This document shows positions 12,537 through 63,376 of a DNA stretch of 64,000 bases, one piece after another (within the stretch, counting starts at the first letter, position 1; each line of letters opens with the position of its first letter). Origin of the DNA: Octopus vulgaris (Eukaryota); contig OX597821.1 of assembly GCA_951406725.2 (NCBI GenBank), forward strand, positions 96,224,001 through 96,288,000. The letters run 5' to 3'. The position numbers and the translations under genes were made by a program. The notes under the pieces are model-generated. The model made no database searches, was not told the origin of the DNA, and was given only the letters and a program-made list of their open reading frames with translations.

Positions 12537-13959
12537 GTTAGTTAGTTAGTTAGTTAGTTAATTTGGCTCAAAAGCAAATAGCAAGGCCATGTAGGGGGAC
12601 ATGGAGTTAAGTACAGGGTGGTGTTCATGTAAAGAGTTCAGGCCACTTGAGGTCCAGGGAGGCTTTGAACAAAGCGGTCGTCGGCATCTTCACCATCTCG
12701 TCTGGCAGCTTATTCCACGGATCCGCAACCCGGACGGAGAAAACTCCTCTCCTTCGATTGAGATGAAATCGTCGCAGGTAGAGCTTTTCGGAATGACCCC
12801 CCAGCCGACTCTCCGGAGCAGGAGTGAAGAACAGCTCTTTCGAGAGGTTACACTTCCCGCTTATGATGTTGTGGGCGAGAATGAGATCACCACGGCGGCG
12901 GCGTTTTTCAAGAGAACAAAGGTCGAGCGTCCTCAGCCTTTCTTCGTAGGACAAATTTTTGAGACCATGAACCATGCGGGTAGCCAGCCTCTGGACTCTT
13001 TTGAGGTGCTGTATGTCTTTGAGGAGATAAGGAGAAGAGGCTTGAATCCCATACTCCAATATGGGTCTCACCAGCGTGACATAGAGTGGCAGGAATATGG
13101 CTGCTGTGAGCATTCCGAATGACCGTCGAATCAAAAACAGAATTCCGCGCGCTTTGTTGGCAGCATGGACGCACTGGGCCGAAGGCGAAAAGGAGGAATC
13201 CACCAAGATACCCAGGTCCTTTACCTGATCGGTCCTCTCCAGCAGCAGACGACCCGGCTCGAAATCAAGTTGAGTTGCAGGAGTAGAGCCGACAGGCAGA
13301 TGACAGCACTTTGACACGTTCAGACACAGGTCCCAATCGTTAGACCACTTCCAAATTTGGTGGAGGCATCGACGAAGATCCTCTATACTACCGCGAGGAG
13401 CGACCAGTTTGATATCGTCGGCAAATAGAAGGGTGTGTTGCGTGAGGTCGTCGGGCAAGTCATTTATGAAGACTAAGAACAACAAGGGCCCAAGCACTGA
13501 ACCTTGAGGCACGCCACTGCTCGCACTGGAGACGTCGGACCGCGAACCATTAACTTGAACTTGGAAGGAGCGATCTGAGAGGAAGGCACCAACCCATCGT
13601 ACAATATCCGGATGGAAACTATATGCTTGAAGCTTGACAAGTAGTAGGCGGTGGTTTACCGAGTCAAAAGCTTTGGCAAAGTCCAATAAAACGATGTCAA
13701 CAGCATCACTATCATCGAGGATGCGCGTCACCAATTCTTCCATTACTAGTAAGTTGGTCAAGCATGATCTCTTCGGCACGAAGCCGTGTTGGGAATCAGT
13801 GATCGAGGCTGTGTTTAGGAGGTGGAGCATCATACTTTTCTTAAGGATGGTTTCGAACATCTTGCTGATTATTGATGTAAGGGAAACCGGTCGGTAGTTA
13901 AGCGGGTCTTCGCGGCTCCCTTTCTTGAAAATTGGGCAGATTATCGCTGTTCTCCAGTC
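12537..13959 (-). mobile_element. 5'-truncated CR1-clade non-LTR retrotransposon (subfamily a) with a (TAAC)n tail
   Basis: Uninterrupted RT ORF followed by a short 3' UTR and TTAG repeats on + at 12537-12560. Confidence 0.93.
12625..13959 (-). CDS. LINE ORF2 reverse transcriptase, C-terminal about 445 aa (5'-truncated, no endonuclease; the first ~14 aa of the track ORF come from flanking DNA)
   Basis: Motifs NYRPVSLTS, QHGF, DFAKAFDSV, GVPQGSVLGPLLF, FADD, KDLG, YVTLVRPILEY, RVQRLATR. Confidence 0.9.
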   Translation of the reverse strand, partial: DWRTAIICPIFKKGSREDPLNYRPVSLTSIISKMFETILKKSMMLHLLNTASITDSQHGFVPKRSCLTNLLVMEELVTRILDDSDAVDIVLLDFAKAFDSVNHRLLLVKLQAYSFHPDIVRWVGAFLSDRSFQVQVNGSRSDVSSASSGVPQGSVLGPLLFLVFINDLPDDLTQHTLLFADDIKLVAPRGSIEDLRRCLHQIWKWSNDWDLCLNVSKCCHLPVGSTPATQLDFEPGRLLLERTDQVKDLGILVDSSFSPSAQCVHAANKARGILFLIRRSFGMLTAAIFLPLYVTLVRPILEYGIQASSPYLLKDIQHLKRVQRLATRMVHGLKNLSYEERLRTLDLCSLEKRRRRGDLILAHNIISGKCNLSKELFFTPAPESRLGGHSEKLYLRRFHLNRRRGVFSVRVADPWNKLPDEMVKMPTTALFKASLDLKWPELFT

Positions 13960-14864
13960 TATAATTGTTGTTGGAGTTACTATAAGAGCAGTTTTTACCA
14001 ATGCTTAAATCTATGTTTAAGAAATGAATTGAAATTGTATTTAAATTTGTATCTGCCGGGATGTGTTGCTTTTTAAATGCGTTAACTACTTCCTATGGTG
14101 ATCGATTTTATATTCATTCATATTTTCCAAAATGAGTAGTCCATCATCACGGTAAAGACCGAATTTTGTGGAGCGGAAGTTCCTGTGCTGTAAATCTAAG
14201 ATGCACATCCTATTAATTCACAAACTTATGTTTCATCGTATAAACCCATAGATACGTAAAGCAATTCCTGGAAATTAATTTAAACCCAAAATGAATAGTA
14301 AGATTTCCTAACGCACGGAATTGTAATGTCTAAAATACCATTTGCAATAAAATCGCTTCTGCATTCTACACCTTTACTATACTGAACTACCTAAATTTGA
14401 AAATAATGTTTCTTTAGTACAGTTTTATCTACATTACTTAACCATTTAATGACAGATTAAAAGAAATGAGTTGACATATTTAATGTTATAGATGTTGGAA
14501 TTTAAAAGATACTTTTACTAACTTAATCTTTCTCAATTTCGATCAAGTTTTTAAAGATACATTTGGGATTGGAAAAACATCTTTTTGTACATTAAAAGTA
14601 AAAGTTCAGATAAAGCTAAAGCTACAACTTAATCGTCTAATTTCGTTGTTGGTAGTCATTTCTTTAGCTTCCCAATCAAATAGCTTGGTATGTACTAATC
14701 TTTATTTCTCTTATAGGTGCTAGTGATATAGTTACAAAAGTGCTCATGATACGTGTGTACGTGTGGCTATCGATATTGAAGTTTGATTGAAAATGCTAAG
14801 CAACAAATTAATGATGTGATTGTTTCTTCACACCATTAATCAAACACTGTCCCGACGACGCTGC

Positions 14865-28360: not shown

Positions 28361-28500
<140 letters not shown>

Positions 28501-28684
28501 AACAAATGATGAAAACGGAGAATGGACTGTTTACCGCATTTGTTATATACTCAACCAATAATCATTGTAGAAATCCTGAGGTAGATCCAGTTACACCTAT
28601 GGCAAAACTGTGAATAACATCAGGTAGCCATAGACAGTGAAACTGCTTTAATCAGCATATTACTAGGTATATGCACAAACTTTG

Positions 28685-28740
<56 letters not shown>

Positions 28741-28796
28741 TTTATATGGTCGCCTATCGTGAAATATAAAATGAAGTTTTTTCAGTTTACCGTACT

Positions 28797-28845
<49 letters not shown>

Positions 28846-28847
<2 letters not shown>

Positions 28848-29269
28848 CAATAGGTGAATGAATTATCCTATGTTTATCGTCAGCATGGAAAATTCGTTGA
28901 ACCGATACCAGGGTAGCAAATTCGCGTCAGAAACACGGTTGAAGCGACCTGTCCAAGGGTAGAAACTCCGGGTTCATTTGCAGAAATTTGTGTGTTATAT
29001 GTGAATAACTGAAAGAATGGAGTCGAACGAAGATGTTAACAAAATTCCTTTACTCTCGACATATGTTTCGAAGACCACATGGTTTCATTCCAAAGGAATA
29101 AAGGGTGTATGATGTAATCTTCTCATCAGGAAAGAAAGGGAGCCTCTCTCGGCAACAAGACAAACAAAAATTTCGATGACTGCCTACGTAGTAAGCTTAT
29201 TGTCGTTTTGATTACCATGTAGGCAGTCATCGAAATTTTGTTAACATCTTCGTTCGACTCCATTCTTTC

Positions 29270-29272
<3 letters not shown>
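28846..29272 (-). mobile_element. TA-flanked non-coding element with a canonical hammerhead and fold-back end
   Basis: (TA)n on both sides; IR 29010-29046/29234-29270 and nested IR 29167-29194/29212-29239. Confidence 0.75.
29047..29139 (-). ncRNA. Type-I hammerhead ribozyme (canonical core)
   Basis: CCUUUCUUUC CUGAUGA GAAGAUUACAU...AUGUGGUCUUC GAAAC AUAU GUC GAGAG U AAAGG: 10-bp stem I with a bulge, 11-bp stem II, palindromic stem III ACAUAUGU, GUC triplet. Confidence 0.82.
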
Positions 29273-29324
<52 letters not shown>

Positions 29325-29326
29325 GG

Positions 29327-29372
<46 letters not shown>

Positions 29373-29380
29373 GTATGTAA

Positions 29381-29677
29381 ATATAAGATCCAGGAATCAA
29401 GGTGTAGGAAGAAAGTTAGCTTCAAGCAACTCCTAGTAAATATAAAAAAACAACTTTCAGAGACAATAGTGGTTTATTTTTATATTTCCCGGTAGGCGAC
29501 CAAGGTGTGCGAAAAAAAGAATACAGGAGTTATGAGTGGTAAATATCCAAGCGAGGTGTATACCGCAGGCTACTCTTCAGGCCAAGGATATCGCGATTAA
29601 ATGAAAGCTTCATTTTATATCCTTGGCCTGAAGAGTAGACTGCGGTATACACCTGGCTTCGATATTTACGACGTCTT
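29381..29677 (-). mobile_element. TA-flanked element with a 53-bp fold-back
   Basis: IR 29539-29591/29617-29669 (3 mismatches) containing CTGAAGA; related fragment at 28747-28772. Confidence 0.65.
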
Positions 29678-29684
29678 ATATATA

Positions 29685-29720
<36 letters not shown>

Positions 29721-30146
29721 TGTATGTATGTATGTATGCATGTATGTATGTATGTATGTATGTATGTATGTATGTATACACATAAACACGCACACGTACA
29801 TATATATATACATACATACATATCTATATGTGTGAATGTATGTGTGTGTTTGTGTACGTATGTATGTCGATGTGAAAATGTGAGTATTTTTATAGTTGTA
29901 GACAGTTGTAAAAATATGCGGAAGCATTGTAGCTTTATAGATCAGGTCTGGTCATTCACTTAAGCTTATTCACATATTTATTTTTAATTACAGTTTTATA
30001 ATTATTCATCTGACTGATTTTTATATCTACAACCTTGAAAAAATTCTGTTCCTCTTTCTACATAAATACTTATCCTTAAAACTACCTCCCCTTCTGCTTC
30101 ACCCCAGTGAACAATAATTATGATTATGAACATCTGGATAACACAA

Positions 30147-48936: not shown

Positions 48937-49005
48937 TTAGAGAAAATAAGATATAAATGCTAAGGCAGTGTGATATTTCTAGGACATTTATAAAGAGAAA
49001 GGTAG

Positions 49006-49051
49006 TCTTACGGATGTTACAGGGATATAAAAGATATCCCATCATCAGAGA
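49006..49051 (-). ncRNA. Hammerhead-like motif with GUAA replacing GAAA, in an element abutting (TAGA)n
   Basis: UCU CUGAUGA U GGGAUAU-CUUUU-AUAUCCC U GUAAC AUCC GUA AGA. Confidence 0.6.
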
Positions 49052-49681
49052 GGGTATGAGAGAGTTTCAATAGAAGGAAAGAGTAGAGTTCGTTATATAA
49101 GAAGTTATTTTGGTAAGGGAGAGGTACAGGAAGTATAAAGGGAAATATTAGAATAAAAATATATGTATATGTTCATTCTTTTACACCTACAATCCAAAAA
49201 AACGAAGCTAGAATCCAGCAAAAGATTTGAAAGATACTTTATCTGTGAGGGTATTAAAAGAACAAGCTTAATATATATTTGTAAGAAACAAAGATGGCGG
49301 TGAACTAACGTAATCGGTGGAGCGTAGGACGAAGGGGCTTGAGATATTATTTACGTCACTTTACGTTCTGAGTTAAAATATTTGCAGACTTCACTTATCC
49401 CTCCCATGTATCCAGGGTCGATAAAAAAGTATTATGAAAAGGAAGAAAAAAAGAGGCGAATCTGAAGAACTACAGGTGGTAGTCTATGGAATTGGAAAAG
49501 TTTTTTTCTGCTGTGGGGAGAAGAGGAAATAGATGCTGCAGGACTGTAATTTCGTCGGAGAAAGGGAAAAATAGTTTTCCGGAAAATATTTTTTTAGAAG
49601 TGTATGGGCATGTATATGCTTGTCGATGAGTGTATATGTGCATGCATATACTTATATGCATACATACATACACACATATAT

Positions 49682-57785: not shown

Positions 57786-58226
57786 ACGAGATCACCACTG
57801 ATATCCAACCAATCTGTGACTAAAGCAAAGGCGTACGAGGTCACCACTGATATCCAACCAACCTGTGACTAAAGCAAAGGCGTACGAGGTCACCGCTGAT
57901 ATCCAACCAATCTGTGACTAAAGCAAAGGCGTACGAGGTCACCACTGATATCCAACCAATCTGTGACTAAAGCAAAGGCGTACGAGGTCACCACTGATAT
58001 CCAACCAATCTGTGACTAAAGCAAAGGCGTACGAGGTCACCACTGATATCCAACCAATCTGTGACTAAAGCAAAGGCGTACGAGGTCACCACTGATATCC
58101 AACCAATCTGTGACTAAAGCAAAGGCGTACGAGGTCACCACTGATATCCAACCAATCTGTGACTAAAGCAAAGGCGTACGAGGTCACCACTGATATCCAA
58201 CCAATCTGTGACTAAAGCAAAGGCGT
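57786..58226. repeat. 9 x 49-bp minisatellite
   Basis: Unit ACGAGGTCACCACTGATATCCAACCAATCTGTGACTAAAGCAAAGGCGT; about three substitutions in total; no spacers. Confidence 0.97.
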
Positions 58227-59364: not shown

Positions 59365-59780
59365 AGGCGGCGAGCTGGCAGAAACATTAGCACGCAGGGC
59401 GAAATGCTTAGCGGCATTTTGTTTGCCGCTACGTTCTGAGTTCAAATTCCGTCGAGGTCGACTTTGCCTTTCATCCTTTCGGGGTCGATTAAATAAGTAC
59501 CAGTTACGCACTGGGGTCGATATAATCGACTTAATCCGTTTGTCTGTCCTTGTTTGTCTTCTCTGTGTTTAGCTTCTTGTGGGTAGTAAAGAAATAGGGA
59601 TTTTATCAGCTGCTACGTTCTGAGTTCAAATTCCGCCGAGGTCGACTTTGTCTTGCATCATTTCGGGGTCGATTAAATAAGTACCAGTTACGCACTGGGG
59701 TCGATATGATCGACTTAATCCGTTTGTTTAGCCTTGTTTGTCCCCTCTGTGTAGCCCCTTGTGGGCAGTAAAAACAAATA
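59365..59780 (+). mobile_element. SINE family A plus a tandem headless partial duplicate
   Basis: 59365-59597 full copy; ~59610-59780 restarts just before the B-box. Confidence 0.88.
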
Positions 59781-62840: not shown

Positions 62841-63253
62841 GCGGCGAGCTGGCAGAAACGTTAGCACGCCGGGCGAAATGCTTAGCGGTATTTCGTCTGC
62901 GTTAAGTTGTGAGTTCAAATTCCGCTGAGGTCGACTTTGCCTTTCATCCTTTCGGGGTCGATAAATTAAGTACCAGTTATGCACTGGGGTCGATGTAATC
63001 GACTTAATACCTATGTCTGTCCTTGTTTGTCCTCTCTGTGTTTAGCCCCTTGTGGGTAATAAAGAAATAGGTATTTCGTCTGCGTTACGTTGTGAGTTCA
63101 AATTCCGCCGAGGTCGACTTTACCTTTCATCCTTTCGGGGTCGATAAATTAAGTACCAGTTATGCACTGGGGTCGATGTAATCGATTTAATACCTATGTC
63201 TGTCCTTGTTTGTCCGCTCTGTGTTTAGCCCCTTGTGGGTAATAAAGAAATAG
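62841..63253 (+). mobile_element. SINE family A plus a tandem headless duplicate
   Basis: 62841-63070 full copy; 63071-63253 repeats from GGTATTTCGTCTGCG. Confidence 0.9.
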
Positions 63254-63376
63254 GTAATAATGGAGAGAGTAATACGCTGTGAAGTTATTGCAATCATGGT
63301 GATCTCCAGCCAACATCTGATGAAAGATACGTTATGTAGTGAAAGTTATGTGTCAAATAATATCTAAATATTCCTG

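Follow-up and report, generated by a model that had tools for sequence, protein, structure and literature searches.

On the minus strand of the window analysed here, a 64,000-nt stretch of Octopus vulgaris DNA, lies a hammerhead motif that belongs to a Penelope-like element (PLE), within its terminal repeat (pLTR), and is not a stand-alone RNA. In full, the reading that we regard as highly probable is that of a type I hammerhead (HHR) in the pLTR of a high-copy Penelope-like family likely belonging to the Hydra clade, present here as a truncated fold-back copy between TA repeats and predicted to cut rarely unless refolded. A preliminary description of this DNA had called the hammerhead itself correctly, but missed the pLTR and the fold-back insertion that surrounds it.

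The hammerhead motif and its conservation

Core positions are numbered by the standard hammerhead scheme, which is also that of PMC4209133. The minus-strand motif follows the type I order, with CUGANGA, GAAA and NUH set between three helices. CUGAUGA occupies 29129-29123, GAAA 29069-29066, and the GUC triplet ends at C17 (29058), next to G1.1 (29057). The preliminary description had placed all three elements on this strand where we find them, and the cut that it predicted between 29058 and 29057 agrees with the C17 and G1.1 located here. Stem I pairs 29139-29130 with 29057-29047 (10 bp and one bulged U), and stem II pairs 29122-29112 with 29080-29070 (11 bp, including three G-U), which bears out the lengths and the bulge proposed earlier; the 10-bp stem I is predicted only if the flanks have been removed or are themselves sequestered. 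Loop II, of 31 nt, does contain a hairpin of its own as had been claimed, but this hairpin has 8 bp and not 5. The palindromic stem III was likewise found, as an 8-nt palindrome that in a monomer gives 2 bp and a tetraloop.

A hammerhead descriptor requiring at least 4 bp in stem II and at least 4 bp in stem I matched once in the real window and never in 200 dinucleotide shuffles. The Rfam hammerhead models gave no match in the whole window at the gathering score and none in 28500-30000 even at E up to 10, and folding of the motif by itself gives a z-score of only -1.6. Judged by its sequence, the hammerhead motif is real, and self-cleavage is a prediction.

The motif was compared among 81 of 96 extracted copies, a sample that is not random and from which the other 15 were omitted, in most cases because a junction or deletion falls within the motif. 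Of the 81, 68 have an intact core, so that the preliminary description, which had let its call depend on conservation in other genomic copies, holds on this point too. Core columns average 95-98% conservation, against 84-92% in the flanks and loop II. The proximal part of stem I and stem III are nearly invariant; the outer part of stem I varies, being unpaired at two positions in 32/81 and 15/81 copies, and across subfamilies only 4-5 bp of this stem are kept. Stem II is 90% paired, which exceeds slid controls, and its covariation is not above shuffles (351/500). Two candidate pseudoknots for a contact between loops I and II show no covariation. Loop III is self-complementary in 73 copies, in three forms (61 + 10 + 2), one common variant (10/81) being an imperfect palindrome that still pairs via G-U (-6.0). 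Among the individual copies, a 5-nt duplication directly past the cut was noticed in L004:988-1114, L057, L066, L086 and L088, which sit on separate branches, while L036, L037 and L053 (contig C29) are near-identical, share the same junction and are probably segmental duplications.

With regard to the minimal PLE hammerheads, in the features that PMC4209133 gives for them, the octopus motif shares the pLTR location, a long helix II, a short conserved helix I (4-5 bp), G10.1-C11.1 and a palindromic 15.2-16.2 region. It differs in its 2-bp helix III with a tetraloop, in having no extra nucleotide after A9, and in its structured loop II.

A Penelope-like family, probably Hydra-like

A genome search with a 268-nt region returned 2,110 candidates, 40 of which were scored. 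An exact 29-mer across the cut has 537 genomic matches and an exact 16-mer of the 5' core 2,079, with 0 for the controls. Of 20 loci picked by an RT-thumb search, 19 contain the hammerhead pLTR. In longer copies the ORF lies upstream of the pLTR and translates into up to 833 aa. These translations contain DKT and YRDD, an Asn-rich stretch, CxxC, CxH and, at the C-terminus, a GIY-YIG-like domain. The RT and GIY-YIG domain names rest on these motifs, because neither Pfam nor PDB matched the family proteins to an RT or a GIY-YIG domain; among 12 homologues, a single one gave the best profile match, to GIY-YIG at E 0.012. Of the named proteins, the nearest belongs to Argonauta hians (34%), and among the nearest proteins DKT/S is found in 119/120 and CxCX5C in 108/120.

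The tandem copy L052 has a truncated repeat immediately upstream of the ORF start and a complete one behind the ORF, which is the partial tandem typical of Penelope-like elements. Its ORF starts about 270 nt past the cut, its upstream repeat lacks CUGAUGA, and it is the sole contiguous tandem seen. Another candidate for a full tandem, L164, was rejected as two separate insertions. The hallmarks of Penelope-like elements, namely, 5' truncation, an inverted arm, a one-sided tail and a partial tandem, are thus all present, and an ORF with motif-defined RT and C-terminal GIY-YIG domains, followed by a pLTR with a HHR, points to an EN+ Penelope-like element. Contigs from four runs guessed to be RNA, and from four of unrecorded kind, all hold pieces of the family at uneven depth. 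Among paper titles and the starts of abstracts, with the repeat databases Repbase and Dfam outside this scope, no paper points to the family; the repeat library of PMC13282606 may already include it.

The Hydra clade, as defined in section 11 of PMC8557442 (Craig et al. 2021), combines (TA)n targets with canonical HHRs. With the Hydra-clade elements described there, the present family has in common a C-terminal EN, DKT, CxxC and CxH close to the C-terminus, (TA)n flanks, a type I HHR whose stem III is nearly palindromic, and an inverted 5'-truncated arm with a one-sided tail. DKT stands in place of DKG in 3 of 4 translated copies, the region being absent from the fourth, and both CxxC and CxH, around conserved E and N, are found in the protein P0002. 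Further, 84 of 92 arm ends border on TA-rich sequence (background 13.9%), although the TA flanks could in part postdate insertion. The differences lie in the N-terminal RWK of the clade, for which the aligned position here reads RWL, and in its CxCX5C linker before the EN, which was found in none of 22 readable copies (0/18, plus 0/4 readable among 12 more loci) and whose position is occupied by an Asn-rich stretch. The marks of Neptune and Nematis (a CX2-5CxxC linker, and DKG in the RT N-terminus) are not those of the family. Because CxCX5C is absent, the family is filed as Hydra-like and linker-less, a placement by motifs and by eye that we consider likely. The Hydra HHRs listed in PMC8557442 have a stem II of 3-7 bp and a loop 2 of 3-10 nt, against 11 bp and 31 nt here, and Hydra-1_oBim, a published octopus member given in the same source, differs by eye from the present family in both HHR and protein. 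Unusual traits of this family are the 8-bp hairpin in its 31-nt loop II, the length of its tail (about 150 nt), and the lack of a CxCX5C linker in spite of (TA)n-flanked ends.

The fold-back insertion and the ends of the family

The features of the copy in the window are collected in Table 1. Its direct arm shows 12 differences from L035. The deletion in the inverted arm is joined at an 11-nt microhomology (29232-29242) and removes the hammerhead of that arm, so that a single hammerhead is counted at the locus; what is left of this arm yields inverted repeats of 37 bp (29010-29046/29234-29270) and 28 bp. Short imperfect direct repeats were also noticed in the tail at 28881-28973 (27 nt at 70%, 16 nt at 75%), which may be protein-binding repeats or chance.

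Table 1. Coordinates of the features of the hammerhead locus in the window (strand "." where none applies)
Feature	Position	Strand	Remarks
(TA)n flank, long end	28800..28845	.	
Direct arm, 5'-truncated pLTR to long 3' end	28846..29194	-	96.6% identity to L035 over 349 nt
Tail of about 150 nt, one arm only	28846..28995	-	Just upstream of the ORF start in tandem copy L052
Predicted bulged hairpin before long 3' end	28860..28895	-	Weak alone (z -1.85)
Predicted hairpin before short 3' end	29012..29050	-	5' strand overlaps outer 3' strand of stem I; weak alone (z -1.1)
Type I hammerhead motif	29047..29139	-	C3 29129, G5 29127, G8 29124, G12 29069, C17 29058
8-bp hairpin within 31-nt loop II	29083..29102	-	Pairing in 96.5% of cells (81 copies); both sides changed in one pair
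8-bp predicted hairpin competing for the 5' strand of stem I	29132..29150	-	From folding
8-nt palindrome	29193..29200	.	Head-to-head junction of the two arms
Inverted arm, ends at short 3' end	29196..29275	+	Internal deletion of about 125 nt
(TA)n-rich flank, short end	29273..29385	.	

Across the family, 92 distinct arms were recorded in loci L094-L163, of which 30 were taken in list order and 40 hand-chosen. Relative to the cut, their 3' ends lie at about +60 in 51 arms (short) and at about +210 in 39 (long), with two elsewhere, and in 23 of 24 loci with two arms, one arm has the long end and the other the short. The two fixed ends therefore define a tail of about 150 nt, compared with the 30-40 bp that PMC8557442 gives for PLE tails. 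Only three of the 92 arms have a 5' end within 5 nt of the cut, though about 27 of the 70 loci had been picked to enrich such cases, and one of the three (L150) may start at the cut within a 4-nt microhomology. Exact counts fall from 1,011 to 550 when the pattern is lengthened to span the cut, the corresponding fall just beyond the cut being from 1,149 to 1,011; a reading of this drop as copies starting at the cut was rejected once the loci were read, as it mostly reflects a loop III subfamily variant and not truncation.

Two published systems resemble these insertions. Poseidon_Ac (PAc) of Anolis, as reported in PMC11167929, shares a tail that is set by two fixed 3' ends, AT-rich targets, a HHR in the pLTR, and no pile-up of ends at the cut, with which the scarcity of arm starts there in the octopus agrees. 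PAc belongs to another clade, and its ORF starts inside the HHR, unlike that of L052. The Penelope insertions of Adineta vaga described in PMC3846280 share the inverted pLTR, a junction palindrome, microhomology deletions and Asn-rich ORF inserts; they belong to other families and have a 31-bp tail and visible TSDs, which are masked by (TA)n here. For PAc, reverse transcription was reported to start at two internal sites (PMC11167929). In the octopus family, the element endonuclease would nick a TA repeat, reverse transcription would start at two internal sites and stop early, and two cDNA arms would be joined head to head. Most insertions were likely templated by uncut RNA, and the copy in the window is probably one among thousands of dead ends.

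Several other repeats were noticed during the survey. Among 11 window ORFs scanned for context, the sole match was one RT, a 459-aa open frame at 12625-14004 on the minus strand (RVT_1, E 1.8e-32) that represents a LINE-like RT fragment. A second CUGAUGA (49048) lies in 48960-49260 of the minus strand and adjoins a TA-rich repeat; after it come a 7-bp hairpin and a GAAA position that is altered. This region may be an end of another Penelope-like family, its hammerhead decayed or rewired. In the flanking DNA of other loci, hammerhead-like motifs of unrelated families occur at L004:3156 (-), L005:849-900, L040:3578-3874 and L045:5312 (-), those of L005 and L040 being arranged as inverted pairs. 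The window also holds a 49-bp unit repeated nine times with 98% match (57786-58226) and two related tandem duplications of 183-184 bp (59428-59772 and 62887-63256), whose unit presumably resembles a SINE.

Predicted folding, alternative readings and meaning

Folding was assessed by two-dimensional predictions, which ignore tertiary contacts, Mg2+ and co-transcriptional folding. Stem I is predicted to form with a probability of 0.97 when the motif is trimmed, of 0.03 within the native pLTR, and of 0.97 again when the insertion is folded whole; the probability of stem III is 0.01-0.03 in all contexts, and the full active fold reaches at most 0.9% in any of them. The stem I medians are 0.01 in 51 young copies and 0.05 in 30 older ones, and the hairpin before the short end is dominant in the young copies (median 0.89, n=51), not in the older (0.05, n=30). 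In its native context, stem I is thus predicted to be sequestered and the ribozyme mostly folded shut. The 29150-29030 transcript that the preliminary description proposed for a cleavage assay includes the competitor strand 29150-29143, and a negative result with it would mislead because stem I is predicted to form there in 27% only. In the normal element RNA, the upstream hairpin and the hairpin before the short end likely keep stem I apart, and therefore cutting would need the element protein or a second copy. The PAc HHR is reported to cut in vitro only with protein and to be dispensable for insertion (PMC11167929). One prediction goes against a rarely cutting ribozyme, namely, that the inverted arm of the window copy frees stem I.

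A second copy is what the preliminary description had in mind when it proposed that the palindrome favours dimer-assisted cleavage, and cleavage mainly by double hammerheads, two copies pairing through stem III, is a possible reading to which we give somewhat less than even weight. The monomer forms stem III with a probability of 0.01-0.02, the palindrome duplex is worth -7.0 kcal/mol, and loop III has kept its self-complementarity in most aligned copies; moreover, the Hydra-clade stems III published in PMC8557442 are closed by loops of 1-3 nt, and a dimer model is set out in PMC4209133. However, the window locus has a single hammerhead, the upstream repeat of the only contiguous tandem lacks the 5' core, the competition for stem I persists in dimers, and PLE dimers cleaved poorly in vitro according to the same PMC4209133; 2 bp and a tetraloop are reported for efficiently cleaving invertebrate hammerheads (PMC7229834). 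The proposal is thus compatible with the data but lacks specific support, and dimer assistance is plausible without being favoured over protein-assisted refolding. A conserved two-state switch, in which the 5' strands of the first two stems pair into an alternative hairpin that traps CUGAUGA and is selected alongside the active fold, seems unlikely to us. RNAalifold prefers that hairpin, three of its six pairs are changed on both sides with a score reached by 0/500 shuffles, and the changes proceed stepwise through G-U on a tree of 45 copies. Yet the hairpin was chosen after the fact, two of its pairs score 4.5% and 2.4% against a tree-sharing null under which unrelated column pairs score better, and its predicted probability is about 0 in the window copy and in the medians of both age groups.

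The predicted effect of the inverted arm could also be taken to mean that the ribozyme of this particular copy is functional and cleaves a read-through transcript of the host, the arm freeing stem I and carrying no antisense hammerhead. Stem I indeed rises from 0.03 without this arm to 0.97 with it, the core is intact, and the deletion removed the antisense motif; we nevertheless hold this to be very improbable, as the full active fold stays at 0.9% and 12 differences in 349 nt fit ordinary decay. Least probable, to the point of being nearly negligible, is a non-LTR retrozyme making small circular RNAs. The type I core and the short helix III are shared with the metazoan non-LTR retrozymes described in PMC7229834 and bioRxiv 10.64898/2026.07.22.740005, and the latter, a preprint, links retrozymes to pLTRs; but the octopus element is tied to an RT-EN ORF and is not a tandem non-coding repeat, its motif is covered by no tandem repeat, tandem non-coding units of 150-450 bp, each with an HHR, were not found, and the copies sampled show truncation, head-to-head arms and attachment to the ORF. 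The preferred reading remains that of a pLTR hammerhead mostly held shut in the element RNA.

Hammerheads are known from pLTRs of canonical Penelope-like elements, the Hydra clade included (PMC8557442), and the pLTR is the expected place for the present one in an element of known kind. Among the questions that PMC8557442 leaves open are the role of these hammerheads and whether the linker directs (TA)n targeting. The family is modestly useful for both, since it combines TA-rich flanks with the absence of the linker, and since its stem I overlaps the hairpin before one of the two fixed 3' ends. A bolder proposal, which we regard as doubtful, is that a linker-less Hydra-like family still targets TA repeats, making the zinc-finger linker proposed to direct targeting dispensable, and that its hammerhead is mutually exclusive with the hairpin marking one RT start, such that an RNA either cuts itself or serves as template. 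If true, this exclusion between cutting and templating would account for the retention, in Penelope-like elements, of a ribozyme that is not required for insertion.
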